Assembly: GCA_044221725.1 (NCBI GenBank)
Contig: JBGAON010000001.1
Location: 224,001-288,000, forward strand
From: Elusimicrobiota bacterium
Lineage (GTDB): Bacteria; Elusimicrobiota; Elusimicrobia; F11
Length of the DNA: 64,000 nucleotides
Direction: 5' to 3'
Positions 31,401-44,548 of this stretch are shown piece by piece. How positions within the stretch are numbered: the first letter of the stretch is position 1; each line of letters begins with the position of its first letter. Position numbers and translations under genes: made by a program. The notes beneath the pieces were generated by a model, which worked only from the letters and a program-made list of their open reading frames with translations, ran no database searches and had not been told where the DNA came from.

Positions 31401-33815
31401 AAGATTTGGCGTGATGTTAACTTCAACGATCAATTGGATGCGGGGGATGAATTGTTGTCAGCGCCGACGATCCAATTTGATTTGACGGATGAGAACAACC
31501 GCATTGTTCAGATACCGTTAACGAAGCCCGTGTTGTTATCGCCGACGGCAAGAAGCTTCTTCTTGTCATACGATATCGGTGAAGGGGCCGAAGCGGGTGC
31601 CGCCGTTGGTGCAAAAATTGGTGACACGGCTTGGATTTCCGTAAGCCAACCGAATCAAGTCTCTCCCACGATTAAATTTTTGACGGCGAGTGCCACGAAT
31701 CAATCGTATCCGTACGAAACGTCGTTGATCCCGATCAACGCCGTGCTGGTCGATGTGGCCGGCCAAACGTTGTCGCCCGCGCAGATTCCGCAATTGTCGA
31801 CCGGTGTCCCAATGATGATGCTATCGATGAAGACGGATCGAAACTTTGTCACGCTGAAGAAAATCAAGTTCTACCAAACCGGAACAATTGAGACTTCTGT
31901 GGATGGCCAAGGCGACATTAAGCAAATTTCGATCTGGCGCGATAACGGAAACACGATCTTTGAGCCGTACGCCGATACATTGATCGGATCGGTGTTGCAT
32001 GCCGCTTCGACAAACTACGCGAACGGAATTGCTGTTATTGATCTCGATGGCACGGCCGGAGAAGTAATTACCACAGATCCGACAAATTTCTTTGTCACGA
32101 TTGACGTTGGCGATCGCTCGTTATCGGGCAAGTCCACCCGCGGCCATTCGTTTGGCCTTAAGATTAAGACGTTTGGTGATTTCACGTTTGTTCCGCCAAC
32201 GGCCGGTGCGTCTACCGACATTAATTATGTTTCGTTGATCACGAATTTGACCACAATTCTCGATGAAGGGGCGATGATCGTGTCGCCCGTGTTCTTGCTG
32301 CCGAAGATTTGGGCAAACCCGTATGGCGATGGCTATCCGGCGCTCGATGAGAACGGCAGTCCGGAGCCGAGACGTTACGATTCGGATGGCGTGCCAATGG
32401 TTGATGTGGACGATGACGGAGCGAATGACATCATTAAAGATGCCGCGACCGCGCTCCCGGGTGTTGACTTGGACGGCGATGGGCTCATCGAAGTCGATAT
32501 GACGCGCAGCGGATTCTTGTCGGTTGACTTTAACAACGACGGTATTCCCGATGACGTGTTGCCCGATCAAAACGGTGACGGAATTCCCGAAATTGACTTG
32601 GGTAAAGATGGGTTCGCTGATTTTGGATACATTCCTGAAAAGTGGTCCAAAGAAACGTCGCGCCTGTTCTCGCGTTGGGCGAAGATTAAGAGCGGTGCGT
32701 TGGATCGTTACGAGATCGGTCTTGGTGTGAACAATTTAACGAACTCCGTTTCAGAAGCGCAGGGCAACAACGGGTGGGTTACATCGGACAAAGAGAATTC
32801 TCTCGAACTAAACAATCTCACTCTGTTATCGGCGGCTGTTGCGCGGTTGTCTCAAAGTATTCCGTTGGATAAAAATCCTCCGTTTGATCTTCTTGTCGAC
32901 AACACGAGCGACCTCACGAATTTCACCGGGGAAAATGGGCAAATTCAGGTGGACAGCGAAATCATGTCCTATTCGGTGCGGGCGAATAACGTGTTTCATG
33001 TCAACAAGCGCGGTGAATCGTTTGGAACGCCGCGCGTTGAACACCTGTTGGCGGCTCGCGTGACCAACGAAGCCTATGTTGTCCGTGCGCGTGCGGTGTC
33101 CACGTCGGGCGTTGCGGGTGCAGAAACCGCTATTAAAGTTTATCGCGTCGACCTTTCGCCGCCGTCGATTCCAGGCAAGCCTGTTTCCGACCAAGAGTTG
33201 GCCGGTGGTGCGCCCGCGAAGACCGGTGTGTTCACCATTAAATGGAGCGGTTCAAGCGACAGCGAATCCGGTGTTCGTGCCTACGAAATTCAGGAGCGCG
33301 TGGACAACGACCCCGTGTGGGCCACGATTCGGATGGTTCCCTCGGCGCAGCATTCCCTTTTGGTAGGGAACAAAGACAATCCGTCGAATCTCCCGAAACC
33401 ATCGGGTCACTTCTATTCCTATCGTGTTCGTGCGTTGAATCAAGCGGGTGGCGTGAGCGATTGGTCCGCACCGTCCGCGGCGGCCAGCACCGGCTTCCCG
33501 ACGGAAGCGATCACGAAGGTCACGAACTATCCGAACCCGGTCGACATCCGGCAAGGTCCAACCAATATTTCGTACATCTTGAATGAAGATTCCTCTGTCA
33601 AAATCACTCTGTTCGACATCCTCGGTTACCAAATTCGCAGCTGGGAGTTCTCGGCCGGCGGCAACGGCGGTAAAGCGGGACCGAACGTGTTCAAATGGGA
33701 TGGAACGGATGCCGGCGGTTCCAAGGTGGCTGCCGGTGGATATATCATGCGAATCGAGGTCATTGGTACAAAAGGTTCAACCACCGTAATTCGCAAAATC
33801 GGCATTCTAAACTAA
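9852..33815 (+). CDS. Giant multidomain surface protein, 3' segment (7987 aa): Ig-like repeats, 27 LLPGET repeats, 8 WRD/NG modules, DxDxDG loops, FN3-like domain, C-terminal T9SS-type-A/FlgD-Ig domain
   Basis: Single uninterrupted ORF. Genuine in-frame sequence resumes at about 9906 (NAMAFTGPNVW..., identical to copy 1). It has no signal peptide of its own, so it is a continuation of the upstream ORF. C-terminus is NYPNP...ISY.L...VKITLFDILG...WDGTD..G..VAAGGY...KIGILN. Confidence 0.9.
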   Translation: MYWNAVPTPSVPLRVNRSNAMAFTGPNVWTSTHPTLQDGLAYQVRMRATDKAGNVEPLRATTAFTFDVSSPTAGIVLPVNNSNISSLPTISGTVTDNTGLSGVQQVELAIYVDTGGWYNEANNTFDQSSEHYFVTSSTNGFATWFSTGIPFVSGHIYALRSRATDKANNVQTIFATAVSTLSFTFDNTAPASQVTFPDGTQVRSTIPQILGTASDNKSGVAYVYASVGQISGATTNYFDGTGFTAATEYFNLATGTTSWSYNASIPYTSGLRYLFRSFAIDQSGNIETALVPQIAAWYDVTKPTTSLTSPLSSTYRSELDSIQGNAFDATAGLAALASNGVQVRILELGGNWWGGSSFNQPDPNAAWSNATGGTPTSWTYVNGSLTSALQSGTTYLIQVRAKDTAVPANQGPSSNGTNSNFTLGVDSNTVVIDKVAPVSGIFLPASGGTTWYYNSLPTISGTSTDAISRITSAAQVTVSIKEALPAGAWWSGASTFTASSEQFFGATTLAAANSTWTLTMPTLRHGMAYLIRVKASDNVVPTPNSETALSSTTFVYDVQYPTATVYSPANGAIISALTDISGTTQEEFVTSAVYITVRDDTMNLWWDNTNSTFTLLNGAKVFYLASQVAGSWNNWTWSFPSSKFVTGRDYTINVYATDAAGNTQPVAISGFTWDKTDPLSEVTVPTNGSFLRVGAFTTVSGTADDANDIQTVEVSIQRLSDSNWWNSGSNSWSGSGPLYISQTATLDGAAGSHPRGWHLTSGLPADAKLSADGLYRVRVRATDAPGNIQQTISNGITFRYDVDAPSLAIQYPVDSTIYPSITSIYGTAQDNFNTKRVELRLKNGNNEYWDGGSWVAPVNTWVVATGTSASFNTVNWTYTTVPTWAAQTYQLNVRAVDEAGNYTQNYSSITFTFDNIPPVTITTYPVSGSTYRSVAFINGTVQDGLSPRDILETRVKIYRSTGVGGVEHWNGGSDAWEGPEVWNLVNRTSHGGSLYYWDYSDTNFTDPNPALTWTSGTTYYIVSRAIDTAGNVAVESSTKTFVFDNTPPASAPTNPLDARAYKASDLAIISGTAIDATSAIASVQLSIKDEDTAGGAKYFNGSTFSATTETFLDVAQLFSASWTYTSGGLSFNNGHHYVFKSSAADIIGNVETPGSGNRILLDGQNPVSGVVSPTNDFTGTPSQTVFGTASDPGFTSGISGTGSGVKSTLSWHQGKAQLLILRDEGVSIGAGPVTYGSWNIAEDFVWNGSTWVAASNTPTWVDADSMDGLGNWTYLGLVNNWVKGKFYVAWVRAIDNAGNVQNAITPGPKFQIAAPAASFVVTGLTDSQAAGFDHTITVEARDAQGFRATGYQGTVVFSAPGGPETSDTDDTLDDIYGLPKSYTFVSGDAGIHTFTTSVRFRQSGTRQIRAEDSVDASIFGVQSGITVNPASAIGLLVVAAGQTYAPGESPTPDGDGKTGSITPVTAGNTIVSQIKVVDKYWNTVTSSSPVISVVTSDPYDTDPGSVSITAGTATVNVTMTTAGNQTITASGAGTDGISNTVVINPKSADRLVAVLPGQTRTQGKYNVIPFGKTGSVSNIYAGQAMTVSVYGVDQYYNLDPAASVVVYTDLPNDSYDTTPFSRTLVSGTTAFTLTPVTSGSQVVRSTANVTNNTYTSESFTVLADTDSTQIRIQLVFSGETPVPGLPPYAQQNGGKNGTPNAQYAGLGSTVTVRLVDRFYNLITGGAVMPTVTLTTSDPNDDGFGFAPVAVSLVNGVKQATITFVTSNNAYSSSANPARNNKGWQVTTNGGGLYTADVSTWVVTYPNDIVKLRLLASNQVIQEGSSPSGSGKTNSGSPVSGTAGTAYPLTVQAVDQYWNQNLGLGPLHNTGAGQNVDIESNDPYSLFHSTGPLTQGEKVFSTFEPRTAQTLTVYAYSVDDPLISSQTITGITITPAAAAHYQTLLPGETPLPGSNVYPTGGKSGTPNTQTAGTAIPSPGVEIRLVDDYWNPIVSGPLPWVILTAPETVDTYAVLPSSQQMALSGGVYRAVFTSTVTLRTAGAALSHRILATDPGLTNYSASYSSYFTVQPNTLNRLQVLMPGETADPGRPANWLGGGGLAGKTGSPDEDGISANGVQSFYAGNSYNVTVNGVDAFYNVVSTNSTISLTSSDLNGTPDNVTPLSNTLAAGTTGFSVIFKTAQDAAAAPVTQQLTAASGALTPGLTPNLNIQANSSTHIQVLLTGETAAPGTSAGKTGTPTAAIAGEDYSIVTRLTDDYWNAIGNTSSDVGLRLTTTDPYDSPDPDTTATILQGAGNFSTTYTHKFQRQNTTGWYVTASTQTGPLYVSTMVGPVPVTADSNAANNHYLIVVLPGEQFEAGKTAAPAGRTGTPDFTAVLGSSVPRAGDSFPVTVVAVDRFYNKVDDSDNPLVTISANPFLFPTYAPGASFTLTNGSATVNVTLRRSTGTATLSINEAAYGSGIEYSTGTSSTFSVVPNSATRLQVLLPGETAVPGSSTGKTGSADSDGNNSANGDGIAGNIDDFVAGVPYQVNVRATDDYYNLVTGATPKVTLTLTDPYAQPASQQQDLISGSTVYAVTFFTANPSGWNINVATSAGINLIPATSANAIVRANSATKLLVLVPGQTQVPGNVSASGKSGTITGATAGSVWIATVTAVDNWYNTVTSASGNAWFVTSDPYDVEATTRTLVNGTTSFSIQMVQAGNQTLTVYHLEGFYSTGTVTNIPITAGTANRALVILPGETYLPGKPPYTIGSGTGGKATPDSPSSQTAGTAINPVTVYATDAYWNQAVSVATVTLTAPADVNPMGLTDLHLVGGATSYAPILYKAVDYNGSTHTFSVSIAGLTNPDYDTPQFILYPDTVGPRKIRMLYPGESRVPGTVAGKSGTVTGPAADSHFTAGQLVAITLDGTDSWGNILDVGSTFTYTTDDAYDTNDPRSVTLLHGTSSYMHRFITERTNDAGEVTIPNFTYATATASGYAPQSVAINVDDDDTVRNLQILVQGETPVPGSGTWPTAGKSGQPDGNTGTGPIDNFAAGQNISITVRVVDNYWNLVENPQKGQPLIQLTATDPNVSVPLLSGAPMSGGALSTTVQLRTKNLTPGWVITATGTANTFGFANNTSAAIPVDAGALAALQILAPGETPSSGTITGKLGTPSTQVAGTLFNIPIGNIRAIDAFYNTVSTNGSVTVTMRDPFGLPQSQTLALSAGANPAVVPITLKISTATFSPQELYVNGLGVVGSTSTAIPVNPNTATKLQVLLPGETAVPGSASGKIGTPSGAAAGDNYAVSVNLTDNYFNTVPQATQPTVRLLTMEPTSFFTVAPAQQTLAINGSASYTMTFQGANSAPGWRVLATTVPASVYSALPDTSPVVVVVATTTDRLQLVLPGETAVPGSTVGNARGLSGTPTAATAGVDYIVTVRLTDRFYNLKTDATPQVQVDTNDPYDTHPSTRTMLNGTTTYTIQFHTAPGPYWIHAATVPSHVTPTLADFTSANVAVNPGSPTMLQVLLPGESAVPGKPPYDFGENGGKTGTPDFDGNNGNGIQSFVAGSTFDVTVNLVDQYFNRSNTQNTFVVLSANDPYDTLAALGQKQTGAGGYQNGQTAFLGASLVTRNTTPGWQIFASTNNGDNYSMGRSTWVPVASGSLQQLLVLAPGEVSEEGNPIGKSNPNPSTEVAGTTFTVTVRAVDSNYNIVTTTDSLVALTFIGNSDATKDDAFSEPTRPLAKNLISGTTTFDLYLVTAENKQTIIIATAPALTPGYSGSIPMTADVTDRFQILLPGETAVPGSYASGARGLTGQPDIDGNNANGISPFIAGTPFNVQIRATDRFWNKTTATPINMTLTSSDLNDLSDPMTINLTAGATTVAWTFNTSNQTPGWNLTVDDGVAAFTGFTSTDVPTAPGTATKLQILLPGETAAPGTSTGKTGTPYAWVAGVSSKVIVNVVDSNWNIVPTASLSVRLSNNTDVYTSTQTLPLTNGTTTFNFTMYTATAATTFTAQRTSGLSIANPTSTSASFATNANSATQLQVLVPGQTALPGKPPYNGTGGYSGSPDYDSNSGNGVTAFPAGVPFNVTVRAVDNYYNLVQPSAKVQLMTEDPFDPTINPQSLAAGTTTFSIYMQTVNQAPGWTITVATTSDSPTSLIANTTPAIPVTAGAAAKLQLLLPGETAVPGSTANSTLGKTGTPTNATAGTRYDVVVRLTDAFYNVITGGAMPTVGLTTTDPYDDETTFFGGNPQSLDPFTGSATIGVFFNTSSSWTVTATDDPYTNLYQNDTSTTVFVQPAAPTRLLVIMPGETHTPGKVTAPQGKTGTPITQTAGENVPATVLIVDNYYNLVSTAQNPISITTDDPYDTDPGNYSVTGGSLTISNLSFRVAYRSAVVTATDSDSAGPSLVAGNSASVPVLPSTATRLQLVLPGETAQPGNTALVRGVTGTPTATQSGVNIPVQVRLTDSFWNLTQSTSAVRLTSADPFDGTSGPWPSAGKDPYDFVVVQGSGTFNFPLITISTTGWALTATDTDDNTSPYPIRFTSFVSSTIVVNPGPPAKLITVLPGESVASGSLTGKTGVASTATAGVEIDVKVYVADAFNNVVTVPPATAGTNSADVRIKVANNTDPNVIINTSTQAISPVTGLTIFQMTLVKASTHSIQADDISVNHSAWTTSVSSTFTVVPNTATRLLTLMPGETALPGTGAPGKTGTPTAQVAGASFPVIVQIVDDYYNQQPSHPAENLRVDTSDLYDTHPGTATYADGTSSDIFAVTLRTKGASHTLAAYDTNMLMPGTTWTYSQSGTFTVNASSASRFLVLLPGESQVEGSLTGKSGAISTVTAGVSFALTVLVTDEQFNTVTNSTAPHVLLHSNDVLEEYVSANPNDVLNGSRGYTMKAKTATTNFSVTASTTTGTPVGTERIVDGTASGMRVWPAGANHFEFANLPSSPIAAGDPFNGTIRVRDQFQNIISTGPNLYTGTVVFQAETSTDPAQVAVLPPNFTFSASDAGIKDFIGGPEGNFTLKKAGSRWLKAYDFGDSNISTERSGYSSRPYITVLPGVANKFLILSPLDISDGVTDSKVSVPAGNISNLGKTQLVGQLSDQFNNYISTPNFGVDLSAINVTGSTGTFKYQSGVSYTTITSTWTDANGQIGANPAFYYFVSTKAADKAQIRLSSGSIIGDSLQIVTVGGSPSKLVFVNPPASSQVGQWTANQFTLERRDDFDNATSQSVSNVTLGLGTGQDTTHSNDSKTFYFTQPLDQASHINTMVFNIGVSQLKFSFYDTMSSLPIGEDGRLGTWQIRADGPPLTAAVYELPVNAGPTATIGVDNAKHSVEAGKTTYQGVVQEFQFELWDSFANPTLATETIKIIFTSTRSASATNDAFGFVTSSSVVSLPGLTALTTGTIDIASGTYVSNFYYFDTRSSESYGILSSSRPVIGGYAAQRSWQTADHFVDIQPTFDFQNKVVILSSPAVFVAGGTSTVRQIQLQDKYSNPTPVILGSEDSNGNGIQFKLQSDSAGNYGFASPSTATFSTGDGLAQLMLGQHTTTYYLRDTKSGNHLHTVRENLSPSRGWAIDTQTYTVVAAPPYKILFVTPVRKLIAGTTNTYAVGVSTPNIQIQMQDVYDNVAISTYSQVIDIFSNSSLGKASVSPNGTFASIFGANALSLTFSAGISERDFFYEDDTTGFPVLSAVHQQNLLRSTTQQVIITPNRATKLSLEHNFSFTSPLSVRNEGIINVVARDQFNNVADGGASMGENNGYLYSGTIMLSQSASTTSVTLSGDGVGISTLTLTASATGTFTVKDLIQETLRLYATDYARPSVYGQTNLAPSNSDITTTGLVGTPVDMAPEPIGARSPFKDAIFVPIALAQGDGTTADKPNPVPMLRIRAEVKPTGINTYAVWKALRVTKLGSIPNQDVIEVALWRDMGFKDGEFDPTDDGNGVTVGVPLATGTFQNVSGNDICDLDFTASSQTVTTIFQQYFITVRISTTATENTTLGVGVLDSSAFTIPAAESTARIAENNFPMLSYKSDIIKTPAPVMMKVTDIAAYYSNQKSSSVPQGLPAAGYLKVAVWTRNFTGVLDKIRVTRIGTASDLDVTDVRMYMDGLDGTNGDGFFQPAGDTLINSSVVSFSTSAATLDIQPNLLVDGTTKYMFIVMGVAESAQIGATLGVRIPSRTDVILTDGLMVDFNQDPTMQSFPVLSGTPPIAATNDHLVINPVPIAPAAAIQGDKDVGLLRLDMNASDHSVILTGIRINRKNANLVNKADDVSDIRIYYDIDGDRVFNASVDKIVSSTSKAVKFNSTTLTSPISNSATNIPVQSVEDFPVAPGRLVIEDNSGNREVVTYAGIDAVFNEFTGVTRGVEGSTPIAHASNVQLDGQASIPVFGPFNGQEILGNLKFKPETLLAADLDASTGPITISIADTTEFPASGAFQIGSELGLTYTGKTATTLTGVRRTAAVSHITGESVFGAARNKSFFVAYDIADLATPGRLAGAQTVLGLDIPATSYISVGAPDVVDPVPSFNAEIGDIFEYGDSITVTSTNTSTGNTLQQQSVNQPILQMMMATNKAEAYWTNLVVTATGTANPADVKRVSVWRDADNNGVFTTQNDVLIGSGTFGNTGNPKLASIAYVAQQKLVTNSRSLAQGITQRYFVTVDMESLATPETTFGLVLAGPSSFSMVPTPPNLDTVANTNLPFASKLRTVIPSPRVVTIQPTMLHSNSLGVSATPVVDVDITASATAIPIRPNTLGLPTSGYAVIDSEVVFYATKSNGALQSVSRAQLGTVANAHLGGSQLGVYYTQGDLNNAYMKLLVSCNGFNVRWFSLKLNRYLPAGSIKGDDQDVTMIHVWKDNGNGILDRDPSTGQIPPGTEVLVGEKALGTNGDAGGTASIALNDPTAGSPGFALVTSQQTTYWITVDVNPTALFDDLLGFKIQAPASFTIGALTANDGIHSVSTTSIPITSAASVIRPTIDTMKIFIEDLAPPQVTQNKKFVPIARINLKTDANTAVWQKLRVDLTTDNGAVSGDVSAIRLFKDVGNDTIFNVQETSTDVNGKLINMLSQGTETFNDKVTTLILNPQVIESETVNPAGQNYFLAYDINAFAQVGVNVGAQIATTDYFTIAYPDVETFNAVTPPFLSSRSNIVAVSNQITLSVDDNAKQVANTGGTYQASQNVEVMRFTLTTDISQAYWNAIRIERNGSSPTQGFQYGHNEDVKYVKIWRDVNFNDQLDAGDELLSAPTIQFDLTDENNRIVQIPLTKPVLLSPTARSFFLSYDIGEGAEAGAAVGAKIGDTAWISVSQPNQVSPTIKFLTASATNQSYPYETSLIPINAVLVDVAGQTLSPAQIPQLSTGVPMMMLSMKTDRNFVTLKKIKFYQTGTIETSVDGQGDIKQISIWRDNGNTIFEPYADTLIGSVLHAASTNYANGIAVIDLDGTAGEVITTDPTNFFVTIDVGDRSLSGKSTRGHSFGLKIKTFGDFTFVPPTAGASTDINYVSLITNLTTILDEGAMIVSPVFLLPKIWANPYGDGYPALDENGSPEPRRYDSDGVPMVDVDDDGANDIIKDAATALPGVDLDGDGLIEVDMTRSGFLSVDFNNDGIPDDVLPDQNGDGIPEIDLGKDGFADFGYIPEKWSKETSRLFSRWAKIKSGALDRYEIGLGVNNLTNSVSEAQGNNGWVTSDKENSLELNNLTLLSAAVARLSQSIPLDKNPPFDLLVDNTSDLTNFTGENGQIQVDSEIMSYSVRANNVFHVNKRGESFGTPRVEHLLAARVTNEAYVVRARAVSTSGVAGAETAIKVYRVDLSPPSIPGKPVSDQELAGGAPAKTGVFTIKWSGSSDSESGVRAYEIQERVDNDPVWATIRMVPSAQHSLLVGNKDNPSNLPKPSGHFYSYRVRALNQAGGVSDWSAPSAAASTGFPTEAITKVTNYPNPVDIRQGPTNISYILNEDSSVKITLFDILGYQIRSWEFSAGGNGGKAGPNVFKWDGTDAGGSKVAAGGYIMRIEVIGTKGSTTVIRKIGILN
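14140..24570 (+). repeat. Array of 27 ~130-aa protein repeats, consensus LQVLLPGETAVPG-x-GKTGTP-x-AG...V.V..(T/V)D.(Y/F)(W/Y)N...(T/S)DPYD
   Basis: Counted 27 LxxLxPGE/Q-type motifs in the translation between about 14155 and 24215. Repeats are diverged at the DNA level. Confidence 0.85.
33500..33815 (+). other. C-terminal T9SS type-A-like sorting / FlgD-Ig domain of the giant protein
   Basis: YPNP motif, D-x-x-G (FDILG), WDGTD..G, G-x-Y (GGY) and terminal K-I-x-I pattern. Confidence 0.8.
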
Positions 33816-33884
33816 ACCTCAAGCAAGCTTTAGATTGCCTGATTTCTGCCTTCAAATTGTCATCAGCAAATCTCTCCTCCGTCA

Positions 33885-33942: not shown

Positions 33943-33960
33943 CAAAAGGGTGAAATAGAA

Positions 33961-35676
33961 ATGAACGAAGTAGCAGAGGGGACATCGTTGCTTTATTTTT
34001 GCAAAGCGCTTTTGGCGCTTTGTTCTTCTATTTTTTCCCGGCCCAATCTCTCCTCGAAAACCTCTGCGAAATCGTTGCTCGATAACTATCCATTGTTTGC
34101 GCATCTCACCCGTGCGTTCATGATGATTATGCTTATCGCGTCCGGTTCGCGTTTGTACGCTGGCGGGGAACCCGCCGGTTTCACGCAGTGGGGCGTCGGT
34201 GCTCGCTCGCTTGGTATGGGGCGCGCGTTTCTCGCGGTTTCAGACGATGCCAGCGCTACGTACTGGAACCCTGCCGCGATGGTTCAATTGGAGCGCAAGG
34301 AGCTTATGGCGATGCAGGCCACGCTCTTCCAGCAGACGACGCTCACTTCTCTGAGCTACGCGAGTCCCGGATCCAAAATGGGAGCCTGGGGCTTTAATAT
34401 GACACGGCTCACATCCGGCGACTTCGAAAAAATGTCGGTGACCGTCGATCCGTCGTCTCCGCCCGACAGCCCAACTTATCTTGAAGTGAAAAAGATGGGT
34501 TCTTTTACCGTTGCGCAGCAAGCGATGACGTTCGCTTATGGAAAACAAGTTACAAACAAACTGGCCATGGGGCTTTCTCTTAAACGCATCAGCACGCAGA
34601 TTGATACCTTCACGCAAGCGTTCGCAGCCGTTGACGCGTCCGTTTTCTCGAAGGTAAATGAGAATTATCGTTTTGGTCTTGCCATTCGAAACGCCGTGAC
34701 ACAAGCGCCGGCAACCTCGAGTGATCGTTTGCCTTTAACGGTTCGCGTGGGCAACGCGTACAGCCTTTTGAACAAACGCCTTATCCTCGCCGCGGATTTA
34801 AATTCGAATAAATATTCCGGAATGGGTTGGAACCTCGGTTCCGAATATTGGGCAACGCGAAAAATGGCACTCCGGCTTGGTATCGAAAGCCGCAAAAGTC
34901 AGATCTCTGAGACCACCTTTGGTTTCGGTTTTGCCGCACGGAGCTTGAATTTGGATTTGGCTGTGGGCCTCACCGAACTCGGCATGTCGCAACGGATGTC
35001 GGTGTCGTGGAAATTTGGTCAGGCCGCGGCCCAAGGACGCGGCGATGAAGCACGCCGCTTAATCAAAGCTGGAGAGTCGGCGTTTGCGAAAGGAAATTAT
35101 GCGCAGGCCGTGGCGCGTTTGGAAGCGGCGCTTTCTGTGGATCCGTCGAACAAAGATCTGCAAGCGATGGTGGCAAAGATGAACGCGATTGCCGGTGCGA
35201 TCCCCGCCGCCACTGGCGACGGCGAAATCGACCGTCTGGTGCGCCAAGGTGTGGCGGCGTACGTGCAGGGCGACATGAACACCGCGTACGACTCGTTGCG
35301 CACCGCGTTCGAGAAGAATCCGTCGAACCAAAACCTCATGAATTTCACAAATCGCGTGGCCCGCCAGGCCGGCTTGCCTCAGGTGGAACCTCCGCGCGAT
35401 ACCGTGTCAGGGGCGCGTTGGACGCTCGTTGATCAGAAGCTGCACGATGCGCTGACCGCGATCTACGAAGGCCGTTACGATGTGTCGATCACAAAATGCG
35501 AACAAGTGCTGCGCATTGATCCGAGCAACGTGACCGCGATCGGCCGCATGGGGGCCGCGTTCTTCCTCATGGGCGAAAAAGAGAAAGCGATTACATTGTG
35601 GAAACGCGCGCTCGAGCTGGAACCGAACAACCAGACCGCGATCGACTACCTGCGGCAACTGGGTGCCTATAAGTAA
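33961..35676 (+). CDS. PorV/PorQ (UPF0164, FadL-like) outer-membrane beta-barrel fused to C-terminal TPR repeats; start codon uncertain (33961-34120)
   Basis: Signature GVGARSLGMGRAFLAVSDDASATYWNPAAM follows a signal-like segment (MMIMLIASGSRLYA). Amphipathic beta strands end SVSWKF. TPR helices follow (GNYAQAVARLEAALSVDP; AITLWKRALELEPNN). Confidence 0.8.
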   Translation: MNEVAEGTSLLYFCKALLALCSSIFSRPNLSSKTSAKSLLDNYPLFAHLTRAFMMIMLIASGSRLYAGGEPAGFTQWGVGARSLGMGRAFLAVSDDASATYWNPAAMVQLERKELMAMQATLFQQTTLTSLSYASPGSKMGAWGFNMTRLTSGDFEKMSVTVDPSSPPDSPTYLEVKKMGSFTVAQQAMTFAYGKQVTNKLAMGLSLKRISTQIDTFTQAFAAVDASVFSKVNENYRFGLAIRNAVTQAPATSSDRLPLTVRVGNAYSLLNKRLILAADLNSNKYSGMGWNLGSEYWATRKMALRLGIESRKSQISETTFGFGFAARSLNLDLAVGLTELGMSQRMSVSWKFGQAAAQGRGDEARRLIKAGESAFAKGNYAQAVARLEAALSVDPSNKDLQAMVAKMNAIAGAIPAATGDGEIDRLVRQGVAAYVQGDMNTAYDSLRTAFEKNPSNQNLMNFTNRVARQAGLPQVEPPRDTVSGARWTLVDQKLHDALTAIYEGRYDVSITKCEQVLRIDPSNVTAIGRMGAAFFLMGEKEKAITLWKRALELEPNNQTAIDYLRQLGAYK

Positions 35677-35697
35677 AAATCCCATTCAATTCAAGCA

Positions 35698-35726: not shown

Positions 35727-35738
35727 TCTTGAGGAGAA

Positions 35739-37633: not shown

Positions 37634-39385
37634 ATGAAACCATCCACGGAACTCGACAATCGTCTCACACGACTTCAAAAATGGTCCGAACGCTACGATC
37701 GCCTGCTTGAGCGCGAGGCGCGGTCGATTGAAGCGCTTTTTATACACGCGGTCGCGGACTGGGAAGCGGAAAAAAAGCAGAAGATGGAAGAATATTCTGC
37801 GCAAGAGGCGCAGATCAAGTCTCAGCTGGATCACGCAGGGAAAGAATACGCTCAGTCGAAATATCGGCTCGAGCGAGACACGACCAGCAACAAAACCGAA
37901 ATTAAAAAAAATGAAGACGAATACCGAGATCTCGAAAAGAAATACGAATTGGAGTTGACGCGTTTGGGAGACGAAAAGACCAACGCGCGGGTGTCGCTTG
38001 AACGCCAGAAAAGCGCGCTTACCGAACTTTACCAGGAAAAAATGCGCAATCTTACTGTCACGCGTGCGGGGCTTCTGCGCGAGTGGCAGACCATGGAGAT
38101 CAAAATCCGGGAGACCAAAAATCGCAACGAAGAGGAAATGAAGAAGTTATCGGAAGAGAGCGAAAAAAATATTTCTGCTCTGAGAATCAGTGCCGAAGCG
38201 AAAAAAGAGGGTTGGTCCATCGCGCTGGACACGATTAAGAAAGAGCTGGCGTCGCTCGCAACCGAGCGTGAGCATATTGAAAAGCGTCTTGTCGATATTC
38301 GAGGCGAAAAAGAGAAAGAGCTCAACGAGGCCCGCCTTGCAATGAAGTTGGCTCGGGAGCAGCTCGAGGTGGACAAAGCAACGCTTATCGAAAAAGCCGA
38401 AGAAGATCAGCGCAAATGCGAAGCTGAGGTCGCCGATCTTAGAAACAAGATCCTTGTTGGAGAACGCGAGCTGCAGGATTTTGTTACACGACATGAGTTG
38501 GTCAAGAAGGAAACGGAAGAAGGGTTTTTGAAAGAAGAAAACATGTTGCGGGAGTCGGTTAAAGCTGAAACCGAACGACGTGATTACGAACAAAAGCTTT
38601 ACGAGCAAGAGAAGACGGGCAAGGAAAAAGAACTAAACCGGCTAAAAGAGGAATACGAGAAAAAGAAATGGCAATGGGACAATCAAGTGCGCACGTTAAT
38701 GATGCAGAAGTCCGTGAACGATTCCGAGTACGAGGCAGAGAGGCTGCGCGTGGATCGCGAGGCGCGCACCGCGCTGCGGAGCCTTGAGGCAAAACGCGAT
38801 GAGTTGAAACAGCGACTTGCCGATATTAAAAACCGTCACTCGGGATTAAGTGTCAACGCGGAGAAAGAGATTCAACTGATAAATCAACGTTGGCATTGGA
38901 GACGCGATCGTTTGTGGTCGTTGTGGCAGAGTCGCTTGGACGTGCTGCGGAAAGAGCGGCTGGCGCTGCACGAACAGATCGAAGCGCTCCAGCAAACATT
39001 TGAAAAGAGCAAAGCGCAAATGAACGATTCGGAGCAGCGCGAATCAAAGCGGCTCGATGACATGCAGGGGTTCTTGTTGCAAATGGGCGAGAAGAACAAA
39101 GGGCAACGCAAACAGCACGAAATCCAATTTGAGCTTGAAAAAACGCGACTTTTCGCTCAGATTAAAGAATTGGAGACGTCCATTCTTGATTGGGCGGATC
39201 GATTGAAGCAGGTTCAGTTGGATGTCTCGAAGGAAACAACGGGTGCCGCCGCGCAGGTAAGCTATTTGGACCGTTGGTATCGCGATGAAGAACAGGAAAC
39301 GCAAGCGTTCGTGAAAGAAATTCAGGACGCGATGTCTATCGTTCAAACCGTTTTTGAACAGTTGGGATTTAAAAAGGCAGCGTAA
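37634..39385 (+). CDS. Cytoplasmic long coiled-coil protein (583 aa), unknown function
   Basis: E/K/R/L-rich heptad-type sequence, essentially Pro-free after the N-terminus, no signal or TM. Starts 2 nt after the previous stop. Confidence 0.8.
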   Translation: MKPSTELDNRLTRLQKWSERYDRLLEREARSIEALFIHAVADWEAEKKQKMEEYSAQEAQIKSQLDHAGKEYAQSKYRLERDTTSNKTEIKKNEDEYRDLEKKYELELTRLGDEKTNARVSLERQKSALTELYQEKMRNLTVTRAGLLREWQTMEIKIRETKNRNEEEMKKLSEESEKNISALRISAEAKKEGWSIALDTIKKELASLATEREHIEKRLVDIRGEKEKELNEARLAMKLAREQLEVDKATLIEKAEEDQRKCEAEVADLRNKILVGERELQDFVTRHELVKKETEEGFLKEENMLRESVKAETERRDYEQKLYEQEKTGKEKELNRLKEEYEKKKWQWDNQVRTLMMQKSVNDSEYEAERLRVDREARTALRSLEAKRDELKQRLADIKNRHSGLSVNAEKEIQLINQRWHWRRDRLWSLWQSRLDVLRKERLALHEQIEALQQTFEKSKAQMNDSEQRESKRLDDMQGFLLQMGEKNKGQRKQHEIQFELEKTRLFAQIKELETSILDWADRLKQVQLDVSKETTGAAAQVSYLDRWYRDEEQETQAFVKEIQDAMSIVQTVFEQLGFKKAA

Positions 39386-42087
39386 TGGATAAACCAGAGG
39401 AAAAATCGGGGCCGCTCAAACCGCCGCATCCGCCACCAGGCAAAAAACCTGGTACGCCTTTGCCGAAAGGTCCGGTTCCACCGCGCGGTGGAATGCAGTT
39501 GCCCGGCGTCAAGCCGGTCGCCAAGCCGGCCGTGCCACCAGCGTCGCCGGCCATTCCGCCTTTGCCCCCGCAAGCGAAGCCACCCGCGGGTCCCCCATCA
39601 ATGCCACCGCGACCACCGACACCCCCGGGCATGAGTGCGCCGCCGAGCGTGCCACCGGCTCCACCGCCGTCCGGCGCCGCTGGTCCCTTCACGCCAGCGC
39701 TTTCAAACAAAATTTCAGAAGCCAACGCCGCGACCTCTGAACTGGAGCAACGTATTGCGGATCTTGAGAAGAAGCTGCTCGAAGAACGCGAGAAAGTTTT
39801 GCTGGCGTCGTTGCGAACAAAAGAAGAAGAAGCGGTTTCCGCCAAAGTAGAAACGTCAATCAAGGATATTCAGGAAAAACTGCGTCGCGAAAAACGCGAA
39901 CAAGAATTGGATGAGTCTCGCCGAAAATCGGAAGCGCGTGCGAACGAATTGGAACGTCGCATGGCCGAAGAACGCGAAGCGTGGGTTTCAACGTTGAAAG
40001 GTCAGCTTGGTCAGCGCGATCAGATTACGCAAGAAATGGAGACTCATTTCTCGTCGCGCTTGAAAGACCTGGAATACCGATGGTCACAAGAAAAATCCGG
40101 ATTGGAAAGCGCGCTGCGTGAACGCGAAGCAGAACTCACGCGGGTTCGTCACGAATACCAGATTAAAGGAGAACAAGAGAAAGCGTTTTGGGAAGACCGT
40201 TTGAAATCGGTGGCCGCCGAGCGGGACAAGCTTGAACGTGAACTCGAACGAACGAAAGACAAATTTGCACAAGAAAAAGACCATTTGCTCATTGAACGAC
40301 AATCGCTGCGGGACCAAGTCAGCAAAGCCGACAGCCTTCTTAAGTTCGTTGAAGAACAAACACGCACAGAAAAAGCCGCGATGCAGCGCGAAGCCGAGGC
40401 CCACGCGAATCTTATTCGGCAGCAGGGATCTATTGAGCGCGAAAGTTTCGAAAAGCAAATCGCCAATTTGAACAGTCAGATTCAGACGCAGGTGCGGGAT
40501 CTTTCCGAGAAAACGACCAGTTTGGCGGCGGTAAACCAGCAATTGACAAATGTTCGCGGTCAAATTAATCAATTGGAGTTCCGCCTTTCGGAGCGGGAAA
40601 AGGTGATCGAGGAATATCGACGGAAATCGACCGAGATTGACGGGCTTTCCGATGCGCAACGCAAAAAATATGAGGTCGAGATAGAGCAATTGCAAAACGA
40701 TTTGAGTCGAGCGAAACGAGCGGTCAAGGAGGAGGCCGAACGGGTCATGACCGAATCCGAATCGCGGATCAAAACGTTGCAATCGCGGTTGGATTGGTAC
40801 GACACAAATATAAAACGCGAATACGACAACGCGCGCATGGAAGTTAGCTCGGAACTAACGCAGCTGGAAGTGAAGTACAAAGAAGCACAAAATCAAATTC
40901 GCGAGTTGCAAAAACAGACGGAAAGCAGCGCGAATGTTCAACAAGAGCTGGATCAGGTTAAAGCCGAATGGAAGCAGGCACAGTGGGATTTGGAAGCGCA
41001 GTTAAAAGAAGCGAACGATCAGTTGAAGCTGACGCAAGGAAAACTCGAACAAGCCGAAGACGCTCGCATAAGCCTGGAACAAGAGTTGCGTCAGCGCAGC
41101 GCGAATGCCGATTTTTCTCAGTCGCAAATGGAGCAGCGCGAATTGGAAATTAAAAAACTTCTCGATCGTTCCGATTCTCTCGAGAAGGAGCTCGCTTTAA
41201 AGAAAGAGAAAGAAGCAACGATGGGGGCGCAGTTTGAAGAATACAAGCGGTTGCTGCACGGCAAGGGTCTGCCGGATGTCGAAGAATTACAGAACCAGAT
41301 ACGCGATAAATCCACTGCGCTTGACCGCGCGAAAGAGACAATTCACAAGCTGAACAACGAAATTCAAGACGCCGAAAAGAGGGAACAAATTCTCCGGGAG
41401 AAAGAAAGGTCCGTGAAAGATACGGTCAGTGAAAAAGACGAAATCCTCGCCGAATTCAAAAATCGTGTGGCGACGCTCGATCGAAAATTGAAGCAAGCGC
41501 AGGACGAATTCGCCGCCATGCACGCACAGTCTGCGGAGGAGAAAGAGCGAATTTTGAATCAGGCCGCGCAAGAAAAGGAAAGACTGATCAATCAGAAACA
41601 GATTGAAATTGAACAAGCACGTCGCGCGGCCGCTGAGGAAATGGCTGAGAAGATTCGAGCAGAGTTGCCGCCGCCGGGGCCTGCCCCCGAGACCGTGGCC
41701 GCACAAATTCGCCAAGATTTGGAAGCCGAATACATGGACCGCCTGCGCGACAAGGAATCGGAAGTCGATAGTAAAGTGGCCCAAGCGCGGGAAGAAACGA
41801 AAAAAGAAATGGACCGCCTTAAATGGGAAGCAGAAAGCATGAAAGAGGAGCTCAAACGCGCGCGTGAAGCGCGATCACAAATCGAACGGGAAGCGCAAGA
41901 GCTTTTGCAGCAGGCGGAAGCGCATTATCAACGTGAACTCGCGAAGCATTCACAGGAGATCGATACAACGGTAAAAGAGCAGCCGAAAGGCTTTTTCACG
42001 CGCATCGGACGCATTTTGGATACACCGATTATCGATACTGGCAAGAAAAAGAAAAACGAAGACGATGATTTTACTGCGGCGGCTTAA
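39385..42087 (+). CDS. Long coiled-coil protein (900 aa) with Pro-rich N-terminus and C-terminal amphipathic helix
   Basis: TAATG overlap with the previous gene. About 95-aa Pro-rich head, about 750-aa coiled coil, KGFFTRIGRILD near the end. Confidence 0.8.
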   Translation: MDKPEEKSGPLKPPHPPPGKKPGTPLPKGPVPPRGGMQLPGVKPVAKPAVPPASPAIPPLPPQAKPPAGPPSMPPRPPTPPGMSAPPSVPPAPPPSGAAGPFTPALSNKISEANAATSELEQRIADLEKKLLEEREKVLLASLRTKEEEAVSAKVETSIKDIQEKLRREKREQELDESRRKSEARANELERRMAEEREAWVSTLKGQLGQRDQITQEMETHFSSRLKDLEYRWSQEKSGLESALREREAELTRVRHEYQIKGEQEKAFWEDRLKSVAAERDKLERELERTKDKFAQEKDHLLIERQSLRDQVSKADSLLKFVEEQTRTEKAAMQREAEAHANLIRQQGSIERESFEKQIANLNSQIQTQVRDLSEKTTSLAAVNQQLTNVRGQINQLEFRLSEREKVIEEYRRKSTEIDGLSDAQRKKYEVEIEQLQNDLSRAKRAVKEEAERVMTESESRIKTLQSRLDWYDTNIKREYDNARMEVSSELTQLEVKYKEAQNQIRELQKQTESSANVQQELDQVKAEWKQAQWDLEAQLKEANDQLKLTQGKLEQAEDARISLEQELRQRSANADFSQSQMEQRELEIKKLLDRSDSLEKELALKKEKEATMGAQFEEYKRLLHGKGLPDVEELQNQIRDKSTALDRAKETIHKLNNEIQDAEKREQILREKERSVKDTVSEKDEILAEFKNRVATLDRKLKQAQDEFAAMHAQSAEEKERILNQAAQEKERLINQKQIEIEQARRAAAEEMAEKIRAELPPPGPAPETVAAQIRQDLEAEYMDRLRDKESEVDSKVAQAREETKKEMDRLKWEAESMKEELKRAREARSQIEREAQELLQQAEAHYQRELAKHSQEIDTTVKEQPKGFFTRIGRILDTPIIDTGKKKKNEDDDFTAAA

Positions 42088-42268
42088 CGGCACCGAGTTT
42101 TGGCTGAACGCCGAGCTCATTGAGCAAGTGGAGAGCACGCCGGACACCGTGATAACACTCACGACCGGCAACAATATTTTGGTTTTGGATAAGCGAGATG
42201 CTGTGATCGAAAAGATTGTCGCGTACCAGCGTCAAACGAAACTGAAAAAGGAAGAGTCATGGACATAG
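42065..42268 (+). CDS. flbD: Flagellar FlbD/SwrD family protein
   Basis: MILLRRLNGTEFWLNAELIEQVESTPDTVITLTTG matches the FlbD family pattern. It sits in the canonical position upstream of motA. Confidence 0.9.
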   Translation: MILLRRLNGTEFWLNAELIEQVESTPDTVITLTTGNNILVLDKRDAVIEKIVAYQRQTKLKKEESWT

Positions 42269-43047
42269 CAACAATTGGCGGAATATTGATTGGCGGTTTC
42301 ATGGTGTTCTTTACGGTGTTTCATTCCGAAGGGATAAAAGGTTTTGCCCCGTTTATGAACGCCGAAGCGTTTTTGATCGTGTTGGGCGGGACCTTCTGCG
42401 CGTTGCTCGTCAATTACCCAATTTCCCAAGTGTTTGGAATGTTCAAAGTGTTGAAAAAAGTGATGAGCAACTACACGGTCGATACGCAAGAAATCGTTAC
42501 GACATTTGTGAAGTTCGCGAAAAAGGCGCGCACCGATGGATTCCTCGCGCTACAGGAAGAAGTTAAAAGTACGAAAGACGATTTTTTGAAACGGGGTGTG
42601 CAGCTTGTGATCGACGGAGCCGATAAAGAATTCATTCAGAACATGATGGAGACGGAACTGGGATTTATTCGAGAGCGGCACAAGGTCGGTCAGGAAATTT
42701 TTAATTCGCTGGGCACCTACGGCCCCGCGTTCGGCATTATCGGCACGATTCTCGGAATGATCATGATGATGAGCACGCTGGACGATGTGGCGCAGGTGCC
42801 GCGCCGAATGGCTCTTTGCTTGTCGGCGGCGTTCATGGGGTTGGGCTCCGGTTATTTGATCTTCTTGCCGATGGCCGGGAAACTTCGTCGCCGATCCGAA
42901 GAAGAGCTTTTAATTAAAGAAATTATTATCCGTGGTGTGCTGCTTCTACAGACTGGGGCGGCGCCCAGCTTGCTCGAGTCCAATCTCAAAGCGTATCTTG
43001 ATCCTGCCACGCGCAGCCTTATCCGGACGACGGCCGGGAACGAGTAA
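42259..43047 (+). CDS. motA: Stator subunit MotA/PomA
   Basis: MDIATIGG start, IVLGGT, ARTDGFLAL, FLKRGVQLVIDG, PAFGIIGTILG, FLPMAGKL; four TM segments. Confidence 0.93.
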   Translation: MDIATIGGILIGGFMVFFTVFHSEGIKGFAPFMNAEAFLIVLGGTFCALLVNYPISQVFGMFKVLKKVMSNYTVDTQEIVTTFVKFAKKARTDGFLALQEEVKSTKDDFLKRGVQLVIDGADKEFIQNMMETELGFIRERHKVGQEIFNSLGTYGPAFGIIGTILGMIMMMSTLDDVAQVPRRMALCLSAAFMGLGSGYLIFLPMAGKLRRRSEEELLIKEIIIRGVLLLQTGAAPSLLESNLKAYLDPATRSLIRTTAGNE

Positions 43048-43724
43048 TGTCTCTCAAGCCCCAAAAGGGATTTATTGACGAAACCGATCCGCGCGTCACA
43101 TTGATCGGTCATCCCGCGCCCGCGTGGATGGTGAACTATGCGGATCTTATGACCGAACTTGTCTGTTTTTATTTGATCCTTTACGCATTGTCAGCGGCTC
43201 TTTCGAAACCGGTGCAGGAAGCGAAGAAAGAAGTGGAAGAAAAAATGAAGCAGGAAGAGGTGGCGGGCGACGTTAAAATCACGAAAGACGGCCTTGTTAT
43301 CTCGTTGCAGGAACAGGGATACAAGGTGTTTTTTCAAAGTGGTTCGTCGGAGATGACCGATGAAATGAAAGGGATTTTGAATCAGTTGGCTCCGACGTTT
43401 AAGAAGCTTGCGGAGAAAAAACACGACATCATCGTGGAGGGCCACACCGATGATATTCCGATCCACACAACGAAGTTTGATTCAAACTGGGAATTGTCAA
43501 CGGCGCGCGCGACAACGGTCGTCCAATATCTCATTCATGAACACAAATATCCCCCGGAGCATATTGCGGCGATTGGTTACGGTGAAAACAAGGGATTGCC
43601 CCGTGGCCCCGACGAGGATTTGACCGCGTGGCGCTCCAAAAATCGCCGTGTGGTGTTCCTCATTAAAAATCCCGATTCGCCGGCGAAAACCTCGGAAGTG
43701 GCTGAAGTTTCAGAAGGCCACTAA
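43047..43724 (+). CDS. motB: Stator subunit MotB with OmpA-like peptidoglycan-binding domain
   Basis: WMVNYADLMT TM with the conserved Asp; VEGHTDD, NWELSTARA, GYGE, NRRV. Confidence 0.93.
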   Translation: MSLKPQKGFIDETDPRVTLIGHPAPAWMVNYADLMTELVCFYLILYALSAALSKPVQEAKKEVEEKMKQEEVAGDVKITKDGLVISLQEQGYKVFFQSGSSEMTDEMKGILNQLAPTFKKLAEKKHDIIVEGHTDDIPIHTTKFDSNWELSTARATTVVQYLIHEHKYPPEHIAAIGYGENKGLPRGPDEDLTAWRSKNRRVVFLIKNPDSPAKTSEVAEVSEGH

Positions 43725-43744
43725 TAAAAAAGTAACCTCCGACT

Positions 43745-44548
43745 ATGAAATTTCCCTCCTCTCGAAAACGGCTCTCAATAATTTTGGTTTCTTTTTTAAT
43801 TGCCCCTATTGGCTGTGTGTCCAAAACACGGTTGCGCAAGACTCTTGTTGAGAACCCTGACATTCTGTCGGACGTCATTCAAAAGAATCCCGATGAATTT
43901 ATAAACGCTTATAAAGTAGCCGCCTCGGCGGTGAGGCAGAAAGAAGCAGCCGAAAAAGCCAAAGAAGAAAAGCTGCGCCGCTACGCCGAATTCGCGGACC
44001 CGAAAAAACCGGTTGTCGAAAAGGACCGCGCCATTCGGGGAAACATAAGTGCGCCGATTCTCATTGTTTGCTACTCCGATTTCCAGTGCCAGTATTGCAA
44101 GCACGGGTTTCAAAATATTGCGGAAGTTCGGGCAAAATACGAAGACAAAGTTTGTTACGTGCACAAAAATTTTCCTTTGCCGTTTCATCCCATGGCCATG
44201 CCCGCCGCGTTGCGTTTTGAAGCGATCGCCCTTCAAAGCGCTGACAAGGCCTACCAATTCCACGATGCCATTTTTATCGACCAGCAACGGCTGGCTGCTG
44301 ATGGGGAAAAATTTTTGGATGAAATAGCAAAGGGTCTTGGTGTCGATATGAAGCGCATGAAAAAGGATCTCACGTCGGATGTTGTGAAGAAGCGCATCGC
44401 TGACGACACAGCCGAAGCAAAAGGATTTGACTTCGATGGCACGCCGGGTTTTATTGTGAGCGGGGTGCGATTTTTTGGCGCTGTTGCGCCGGCCGAGTTT
44501 GAGGATATTATCGACCGGCGGCTTAACGAACTCGAGCCCAAAAAATAA
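43745..44548 (+). CDS. DsbA/BdbD-family thiol-disulfide oxidoreductase, probable lipoprotein
   Basis: YSDFQCQYC (CxxC), HKNFPL, GTPGF cis-Pro loop; N-terminal hydrophobic stretch ending PIGC. Confidence 0.85.
   Translation: MKFPSSRKRLSIILVSFLIAPIGCVSKTRLRKTLVENPDILSDVIQKNPDEFINAYKVAASAVRQKEAAEKAKEEKLRRYAEFADPKKPVVEKDRAIRGNISAPILIVCYSDFQCQYCKHGFQNIAEVRAKYEDKVCYVHKNFPLPFHPMAMPAALRFEAIALQSADKAYQFHDAIFIDQQRLAADGEKFLDEIAKGLGVDMKRMKKDLTSDVVKKRIADDTAEAKGFDFDGTPGFIVSGVRFFGAVAPAEFEDIIDRRLNELEPKK

Follow-up and report, generated by a model that had tools for sequence, protein, structure and literature searches.

Flagellar motor genes in a genome with no detected flagellum

What could the torque-generating core of a flagellar motor be doing in a bacterium in which no flagellum was found? 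The question is raised by a run of genes in a stretch of 64,000 nucleotides (hereafter, the window) from a metagenome-assembled genome of an Elusimicrobiota bacterium (GenBank assembly GCA_044221725.1, here G000), which corresponds to positions 224001-288000 of its contig C3. A reading of the window by a model from the letters alone (the original prediction) had described a co-oriented run consisting of a giant surface protein, a PorV-type barrel with tetratricopeptide repeats (TPR), a FliF/FliG/TPR fusion, two coiled-coil proteins, flbD, motA, motB and dsbA. An open reading frame (ORF) check and family scans recovered all of these ORFs at the predicted positions on the + strand. The junctions from 37631 to 43745 proved as tight as described, with gaps of 2 and 20 bases and overlaps of 1, 23, 10 and 1 bases, and a Pfam scan of the 29 window ORFs found no flagellar families in the window beyond those of the run. 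On balance, and with a little more than even confidence, we read the run as encoding a rotor-stator machine that stands alone, independent of any flagellum, and is made from the torque-generating core of the flagellar motor. For this machine we infer ring formation, rotation and a coupling to the giant protein.

The rotor fusion

The putative rotor protein is encoded at 35739..37631 (+ strand). In order from its N-terminus, it comprises a signal or first transmembrane segment (TM1), a periplasmic domain of about 175 residues of the type of ring-building motif 3 (RBM3) of FliF, a second transmembrane segment (TM2), an acidic/Gly linker, FliG_M, FliG_C and a cytoplasmic TPR tail. Pfam models matched FliG_C (98.3 bits), FliG_M (50.8 bits) and TPR repeats, and a profile of 21 fusion orthologues, all of which keep the TPR tail, matched the Thermotoga FliG structure 1lkv in the PDB with an E-value of 1.5e-61. 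FliG_N gave no Pfam match in the window fusion, in which TM2 and the acidic/Gly linker precede FliG_M instead.

For the front half, evidence comes from profiles and predicted folds. YscJ_FliF (PF01514), which covers RBM1-RBM2, had no match in the whole genome G000. The N-terminal profile of the 21 orthologues had Salmonella FliF (6scn, E = 3.2e-4) as its top PDB match, aligned over two collinear stretches (FliF residues 223-288 and 381-470), and SpoIIIAG, a ring protein of the same motif type, as its second. With an AlphaFold model of the front part as query, the top 18 Foldseek matches were all FliF RBM3, collar or S-ring structures (E = 1.5e-4 to 2e-3). The same N-terminal profile, searched against 1.84 billion representative proteins, matched 1310 of them at E<=1e-3, 203 at E<=1e-10 and 33 at E<=1e-30. 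Thirty proteins picked from the best 150 were scanned with Pfam. FliG_C was carried by 17 of them, seven of which also had YscJ_FliF_C (PF08345) above the cut-off, and two had no family. All 11 proteins that had been chosen for a match at about residues 230-450 (lengths of 500-570 amino acids, aa) carried YscJ_FliF together with YscJ_FliF_C and are true FliFs. On the strength of the PDB profile match, the Foldseek matches and the representative-protein search, we regard the front half of the fusion as homologous to RBM3 and TM2 of FliF, at the level of profile and fold only, with RBM1 and RBM2 absent. The FliF/FliG/TPR fusion of the original prediction is therefore correct for FliG_M, FliG_C and TPR, and has to be narrowed from a whole FliF to RBM3 and TM2.

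Two of the representative proteins, of about 840 aa each (P0087 and P0136), were seen to combine a histidine kinase (HisKA, HATPase_c), YscJ_FliF_C, FliG_M and FliG_C in one chain.

The stator and the torque interface

The run encodes a MotA-type stator subunit (42259..43047, + strand) and a MotB-type stator subunit (43047..43724, + strand). The former matched MotA_ExbB (87.5 bits), and among NCBIfam models those of MotP, MotA and PomA (E = 1e-56 to 1e-64) and not those of TolQ/ExbB, with scores that lie under the equivalog cut-offs (216.5 against 394 for MotP). The latter contains MotB_plug (37.8 bits) and an OmpA peptidoglycan-binding domain (56 bits). Upstream of these, a 67-aa FlbD/SwrD protein (42065..42268, + strand; PF06289, 92 bits, E = 1.7e-26, cut-off 24.7) overlaps the start of motA by 10 bases.

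In E. coli FliG, K264, R281, D288, D289 and R297 are the charged residues of the torque helix. Zhou, Lloyd and Blair are said to have reported in 1998 that MotA R90 pairs with FliG D288/D289 and MotA E98 with FliG R281. We aligned the module proteins with FliG, MotA and MotB of E. coli K-12 as the reference. E150, P173 and P222 of MotA are invariant in the 11 sequences, and D32 of MotB is kept in 11 of 12, the window MotB included. The R90-D288/D289 charge pair is kept on both partners: the MotA R90 position is R or K in 11/11 sequences, and FliG has E at the position of D288 in 21 of 22 sequences and at that of D289 in 16 of 22. The K264 position is basic in 17/22. The E98-R281 pair, on the other hand, is lost on both partners, the MotA E98 position being occupied by Q in seven sequences, E in three and D in one (n = 11). 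One charge pair kept and the other lost on both sides is the pattern that a co-adapted interface would show, and these residues are suggestive, although not proof, of a co-adapted rotor-stator interface.

Loss of the FlbD/SwrD family protein impairs swarming in B. subtilis (PMC13740483). A predicted interaction of SwrD with MotA was not confirmed (PMC13740483).

Occurrence of the module without a flagellum

Could the run have no function of its own and be what remains, or one scattered piece, of a flagellum that was lost or is unassembled? Every recognisable part of it belongs to a flagellar family, the phylum includes a few flagellated members and, because G000 (2.82 Mb in five contigs) is 93.9% complete, some genes could be unassembled. 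However, six flagellar markers had no match in a whole-genome six-frame search of G000, including FHIPEP/FlhA, Flg_bb_rod, Flagellin_N, FliP and FliMN_C, whereas each flagellar model matched in 4 of the 14 control genomes. Flagellin_N, FliP and FliMN_C also had no match in G204, a 100% complete genome of the same genus, while FliMN_C was matched in a flagellated relative, G206. The situation that the original prediction had named as fatal to it, a flagellar gene set elsewhere in the genome that lacks its own fliF, fliG and motAB, was thus not encountered in G000.

The distribution of the fusion also speaks against a relic. It was surveyed in 201 genomes sampled evenly across the phylum, a full-length orthologue being defined by a best E<=1e-60 and near full-length cover. 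The fusion gave matches at E<=1e-5 in 82 genomes and a full-length orthologue in 52, while FlhA was found in five, just one of which (G064) is among the 52 carriers. At the 20 loci that were fetched for comparison, from many families, the fusion is intact with 29-71% identity. Flagellar-type MotA (E<=1e-15) was found in 74 of the 201 genomes, including all 52 fusion carriers, in 48 of which it reached E<=1e-60. The families f2 and f12, both large and made up of small genomes, had no MotA (0/58 and 0/63) and gave fusion matches in 6/58 and 4/63 genomes, at E-values of about 1e-6 except for one genome (G123, 1.7e-24). By these counts we take both families to be without the motor module.

Two flagellated genomes carry the fusion beside a canonical FliG and their own flagellar genes. 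G064 encodes the fusion and FlbD-MotA-MotB on one contig, and FlhA, a canonical FliG of 335 aa and another MotA on a different contig. G206, which belongs to the family of the window genome, has flagellin, FliP, FliM/N and a canonical FliG on contig C58 and the complete module, in the order PorV-fusion-CC1-CC2-FlbD-MotA (CC1 and CC2 being the two coiled-coil proteins), on contig C81. In a maximum-likelihood tree of the FliG middle/C-terminal region (32 sequences), 23 fusions formed one group (support 89/80), five of six paralogue fusions were grouped (89/77) with one long-branched paralogue left unplaced, and the three canonical FliGs stood apart (93/81). As there are three canonical FliGs and no outgroup, the tree gives separateness and not direction. 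With separate canonical FliGs in flagellated carriers and the fusions grouped apart, the module is, as judged from genes and phylogeny, distinct from the flagellum. We therefore hold a functionless relic to be very improbable, and a dispersed flagellar locus was rejected on the same evidence.

FliG_C was found at two places in G000, the second of which lies on contig C5. There, a paralogous module (G000:C5:182557-188354; L003:10558-16355) encodes a TPR protein, a 576-aa FliF-like/FliG fusion with a faint match to the fliF model TIGR00206 (E = 1.7e-4), MotA, two MotB-like proteins and a response regulator with a GGDEF domain. Similar paralogues were seen in many genomes of the phylum. The GGDEF response regulator hints at control of this sister system by cyclic di-GMP (c-di-GMP).

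A dedicated PorV-type barrel

The gene upstream of the fusion encodes a PorV-family barrel with a TPR domain (PorV-TPR; + strand). Its ORF was listed as 33835-35676, of which the first 95 codons are unlike protein, and a signal-peptide-like stretch begins at about 34120. The true start is likely to be near 34120, giving a gene at 34120..35676, in agreement with the lengths of its orthologues (524-614 aa). PorV-TPR matched the family model NF033709 (PorV_fam) with 114.1 bits (cut-off 90) and the equivalog model NF033710 with 40.2 against a cut-off of 250, which makes it a member of the PorV/PorQ family and not an orthologue of PorV. In its predicted structure (predicted local distance difference test, pLDDT, 84.5), a 14-strand barrel is followed by about 11 TPR helices (residues 303-513). 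We assign the barrel to the outer membrane and the C-terminal TPR domain to the periplasm. The best fold matches were chain F of the T9SS (type IX secretion system) translocon structures 8gl6 and 6h3i (E = 1e-13 and 6e-12), which we take to be PorV, followed by FadL and TodX.

The association between this barrel and the fusion is close. Of the 20 fetched loci, 19 have a PorV-like orthologue as the immediate upstream neighbour of the fusion; in the exception, G064, PorV-TPR is on a different contig from the fusion. Across the 201 genomes, PorV-TPR was found at E<=1e-50 in 54, and at E<=1e-90 in 51 of the 52 fusion carriers; in 50 of these 52 it shares a contig with the fusion and lies no more than about 450 bases upstream of it. 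It was not found in G029 (89% complete), where the fusion match starts 34 bases from the contig end. A homologue of the C-terminal part of the giant protein lies upstream of PorV in 16/20 loci. The coupling in the original prediction depended on a conserved linkage of the motor genes to porV and to cargo with a T9SS-type C-terminal domain (CTD), and the linkage to the PorV-TPR gene is conserved. Downstream of the fusion, FlbD-MotA-MotB occurs within the first 20 kb in 10/20 loci and within the next 10 kb in one more.

Barrels of this family are common in the phylum. PorV_fam matched at 25 places in G000, 20 of them above the cut-off, and the CTD-like domain of the giant protein was found again at the C-terminus of most of 27 ORFs of this genome. 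By a strict rule, a CTD ORF lies just upstream of 13 of the 25 PorV places; inspection by eye added C5:518993, C5:507580 and C3:641875, and at three further places (C5:38907, C3:846708 and C5:344560) the CTD ORF lies just downstream. With up to 10 candidates per genome scored, PorV-family barrels were present in 183/201 genomes, including 58/58 in f2 and 45/63 in f12. As these two families have no motor, CTD/PorV pairs generally need no such motor. The gene distribution thus presents the pair of a CTD protein and a PorV-type barrel as a general cassette of the phylum that works without the motor, with the motor tied to one special, TPR-bearing member of the PorV family.

A true T9SS was considered as a candidate and rejected. 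As SprA_N and GldM were silent in the first control set, both searches were repeated with a Flavobacteriaceae genome (G201) as the control. SprA_N had no match in G000 and three in the control, and GldM (TIGR03517) had none in G000 and one in the control (E = 6e-134); GldL/PorL, GldK, GldN and PorU were not searched. Of the T9SS-like giant cargo and PorV put forward by the original prediction, the PorV-family barrel stands and the CTD-like end matches FlgD_ig above its cut-off and Por_Secre_tail below, while the likeness to a T9SS is weak, given that SprA_N and GldM were not found and that the barrel belongs to a family with 25 places in the genome.

These results bear on the possibility that the same core energises export or assembly of the giant CTD protein at the outer membrane, lending proton-motive energy to its passage or insertion through or next to the PorV-type barrel in the manner of GldLM/PorLM, with no movement after export. 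The giant protein, with about 16,000 aa and a Sec signal, must somehow cross the outer membrane, and G000 has CTD proteins and PorV-family barrels with no SprA or GldM found. The adjacency of PorV-TPR to the fusion in nearly all carriers would also be expected. A complex prediction for the periplasmic ring domain of the fusion (residues 8-182) with the TPR domain of PorV-TPR (305-518) points in the same direction. It gave a contact score of 0.41, against 0.00 for the best of three controls, with runs agreeing in at least 35% of contacts and a partner pLDDT of at least 76. The mark used for this prediction was reached by 116/157 solved complexes and 2/215 mismatched pairs, and at scores of 0.60 or less by 18/157 solved complexes and both passing mismatches. 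The multimer prediction suggested in the original prediction has hence returned a weak pass, which raises the odds of a direct contact between the ring and the PorV TPR domain only a little. However, f2 and f12 keep PorV-family barrels without a fusion orthologue or MotA, and just one of the 25 PorV places in G000 adjoins the motor. We therefore consider export as the sole task of the motor unlikely.

In eight related loci (L044, L045, L047, L048, L050, L051, L052 and L055), the gene immediately before PorV-TPR encodes nothing but the CTD-like domain, as a separate protein of 129-161 aa that bears its own signal peptide. The domain may thus act not just as a tag on cargo but also as a constant partner of the barrel.

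The coiled-coil proteins

Between the fusion and flbD, the run encodes coiled-coil protein 1 (37634..39385, + strand; 583 aa) and coiled-coil protein 2 (39385..42087, + strand; 900 aa), the latter with a Pro-rich N-terminus. Both are rich in E, K, R, Q and L, which make up 0.54 and 0.50 of the residues, respectively. Pfam and NCBIfam gave nothing specific for either of them. Coiled-coil protein 2 had SMC-type coiled-coil matches only, and coiled-coil protein 1 matched generic coiled-coil clusters of the protein atlas only, all with scores below 0.9. A homologue of coiled-coil protein 2 was found downstream of the fusion in 19/20 loci.

In principle, the work of the motor could be delivered inside the cell, the ring turning or pulling the coiled coils as cytoskeletal or tethering elements while PorV-TPR acts as an envelope anchor only. 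Both proteins lack a signal peptide and a transmembrane helix, 19 of the 20 loci have one to three large coiled-coil-like ORFs (by composition) right after the fusion, and the TPR tail that the orthologues retain is cytoplasmic. Against this, coiled-coil protein 1 is detectable by sequence just in the closest relatives and matches no known family or partner in Pfam, NCBIfam or the protein atlas. Moreover, the near-universal adjacency of the fusion to an outer-membrane barrel and a giant protein would be left unexplained. We regard delivery of the work inside the cell as distinctly improbable.

An extra A after position 37903, in the gene of coiled-coil protein 1, was observed in one contig from an RNA library (X8, depth 9.9) and not in the other runs that cover this position.

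The giant surface protein

Upstream of PorV-TPR, the window contains two giant ORFs on the + strand. Piece 1 (2..9301) starts outside the window at G000:C3:209236 and encodes 8021 aa with a signal-peptide-like N-terminus and Ig-like repeats (Big_3_2, 46.5 bits). Piece 2 (9852..33815; 7987 aa) begins in the middle of a repeat, has no signal peptide and carries the CTD-like end. Piece 1 ends in sequence that is unlike protein. In the junction between them (9100..9851, + strand), probably a frameshifted coding sequence, tblastn gave matches at 9100-9850 in three frames (E = 2e-105, 1e-22 and 5e-96) that align in order along a single repeat unit of piece 1 (residues 2296-2834). These collinear matches, together with the signal peptide on piece 1 and the CTD on piece 2, make it probable that both ORFs belong to a single gene (about 16,190 aa) that is interrupted by two or more frameshifts.

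Pfam detected Ig-like domains and nothing else in the giant protein. Its T9SS-CTD-like/FlgD_ig domain of about 100 aa (33396-33815, + strand) was recognised by a match of FlgD_ig within the last 139 aa (29.1 bits, cut-off 27), whereas two Por_Secre_tail matches (17.3 and 16.5 bits) stayed under their cut-offs (27 and 23) and CHU_C was sub-threshold. Very long ORFs are not confined to this locus: G000 has 37 ORFs of at least 1,500 aa in 2.8 Mb, including ORFs of 18,006 and 13,689 aa.

Proposed mechanism

By homology, the fusion would build a ring in the inner membrane through its FliF-type RBM3, with one FliG middle/C-terminal unit per subunit on the cytoplasmic face. MotA/MotB, anchored to peptidoglycan and aided by FlbD/SwrD, would be driven by ion flow to push against the C-terminal domain of FliG, thereby turning the ring, a step suggested by the residues conserved in the channel and at the interface. 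In the periplasm, the ring may engage the TPR domain of the dedicated PorV-type barrel, which in turn would hold the CTD of the giant surface protein of about 16,000 aa. Work of the motor may then move, tension or deploy this giant adhesin at the cell surface, although this step is the least certain. The missing FliM/FliN switch would be replaced by the TPR tail and the coiled-coil proteins, which perhaps serve as a scaffold or tether.

In its strongest form, this reading describes a further proton- or sodium-driven rotary machine of the envelope, next to the flagellum and the T9SS/gliding motor, in which MotAB turns a minimal FliF-RBM3/FliG ring and the rotation, passed across the periplasm to the dedicated PorV-type barrel, propels an adhesin of about 16,000 aa across the cell surface or outwards from it. 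Such a machine would provide an unrecognised surface motility or active adhesion in a largely non-flagellated phylum, and its architecture might be older than, or parallel to, the complete flagellum. We put this forward as a tentative possibility, to which we give clearly less credence than to the stand-alone rotor-stator machine itself.

Several observations weigh against the flagellum-independent machine or against parts of its proposed mechanism. For the rotor, residues 1-300 of the fusion gave no Pfam match, and the model of its front part is of modest quality (mean pLDDT 71.6; TM-scores of 0.28-0.49 and a root-mean-square deviation of at least 9.3 Å in the fold matches). FliG_N and FliM/FliN are missing, and the positions of FliG R281 and R297 are basic in 0 of 22 sequences. 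As for the stator, flbD-motAB is not nearby in the other 9 of the 20 loci, where an orthologous MotA (48-70% identical) lies on another contig.

On the side of the proposed cargo, pairs of a PorV barrel and a CTD protein are common in G000 and in motor-less lineages, the predicted contact between ring and barrel is weak, and the giant gene is apparently frameshifted in this assembly. In addition, the giant gene may be separated from the operon by a terminator-like hairpin (34001-34023), which has ten GC-rich pairs and a T-rich tail and is located after the giant stop and before the likely PorV start. On the supporting side, one study has four RNA libraries with near-identical contigs, which several studies also have in their DNA runs. 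In a comparison of three RNA runs and one independent DNA run with 28001-47000, contigs from the RNA libraries were at least 99% identical in 88/90 pieces and covered 22-24 of 30 bins, every gene of the run included; these contigs are no proof of transcription, they also cover the opposite-strand ClpB gene, and the uncovered parts are meaningless. Finally, we know of no cultured organism that carries the module.

The repurposed rotary machine of the original prediction is thus partly supported, by the domains, by the absence of a detected flagellum, by the conserved synteny and by the co-occurrence of the parts, and is to be cut back in the extent of FliF, the likeness to a T9SS and the inclusion of dsbA.

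Comparison with known systems

The module shares with the flagellar motor core homologous FliG_M/FliG_C, FliF RBM3 and TM2, MotA R90/E150/P173/P222, the MotB plug, D32 and OmpA-like domain, and an FlbD/SwrD gene directly before motA. Unlike a flagellum, it comes without an export apparatus, rod, hook, filament, FliM/FliN, FliG_N and FliF RBM1/2. Its FliF-FliG is a single polypeptide with a TPR tail in which R281 and R297 of FliG are not kept, and it is partnered with a PorV-type barrel, coiled-coil proteins and a giant CTD protein.

Fusions of FliF and FliG have been engineered in Salmonella and Vibrio, where the MS-ring protein and FliG are joined 1:1 in a single chain; the Vibrio fusions are reported to form rings, of which an S-ring structure was solved (PMC11481574; 10.1101/2023.02.06.527414). 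The PDB entries 8z4d and 8z4g were among the profile and fold matches of the window fusion. The engineered proteins are laboratory constructs of full-length FliF and full-length FliG inside a flagellum, whereas the fusion of the module is natural, consists of RBM3, TM2 and FliG_MC only, and occurs with no flagellum.

The T9SS and gliding machinery of Bacteroidota consists of the GldLM/PorLM motor, the SprA translocon, the PorV shuttle, CTD cargo and the SprB adhesin. The module resembles it in its PorV-family barrel, in a giant protein that carries a CTD-like Ig domain and in having the genes of an ion-driven motor next to these two. The T9SS motor is reported to power secretion and the movement of adhesins (PMC8986121; PMC9127263). 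SprA_N and GldM, in contrast, were not found in G000, the motor of the module is of the FliG/MotAB and not the GldLM type, its CTD stays under the Por_Secre_tail cut-off, and PorV-family barrels occupy 25 places in the genome. Other systems, such as Tol-Pal, TonB-ExbBD, AglRQS-Glt of Myxococcus and ZorAB, use an ion-driven stator of the 5:2 type for a non-flagellar envelope process. None of these is known to have a FliG rotor or a FliF-type ring, and the stator of the module scores as MotA/MotP/PomA and not as TolQ/ExbB.

A literature search yielded no description of the module, the papers retrieved being those on engineered FliF-FliG fusions and unrelated ones. In a 2026 preprint on the ancestral flagellum, a term search of the main text gave no mention of Elusimicrobia or of fusions. 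A FliG rotor with a MotAB stator outside a flagellum is thus undescribed in the literature searched. If the proposed function is correct, the module represents a new class of ion-driven envelope machine made from well-studied families, and a natural minimal rotor (FliF RBM3:FliG 1:1, with no switch) that would be useful for torque studies. It would also offer a possible view of the flagellar motor as assembled from, or giving rise to, simpler modules. The locus further bears on how very large CTD surface proteins are handled in organisms without a T9SS translocon.

Other features of the window

The last gene of the run (43745..44548, + strand) encodes a DsbA-like thioredoxin-fold protein (Thioredoxin_4/DSBA; Thioredoxin_4, 77.8 bits). 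It is present and co-oriented as the original prediction had it, yet it is not a conserved member: DsbA was found in 0/20 loci, is absent from the same-genus locus L089, and was rejected as part of the module. A ClpB-like gene (44549-46711) follows on the - strand, opposite to the run.

A promoter scan was uninformative (5 sites against 7.6 expected). No riboswitch for c-di-GMP was detected: the window, its 40-kb upstream flank and the paralogous locus gave no Rfam match that reached the gathering score, and at E<=1 there was no Rfam match upstream of the giant gene or around 33700-35800.

Further downstream, at 58291-62918 of the window, a TPR/BamD-like protein of 1015 aa is followed by ExbB and two ExbD proteins (61381-62918). 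This ExbB-ExbD-ExbD set is a second, separate energiser of the MotAB family within the window.

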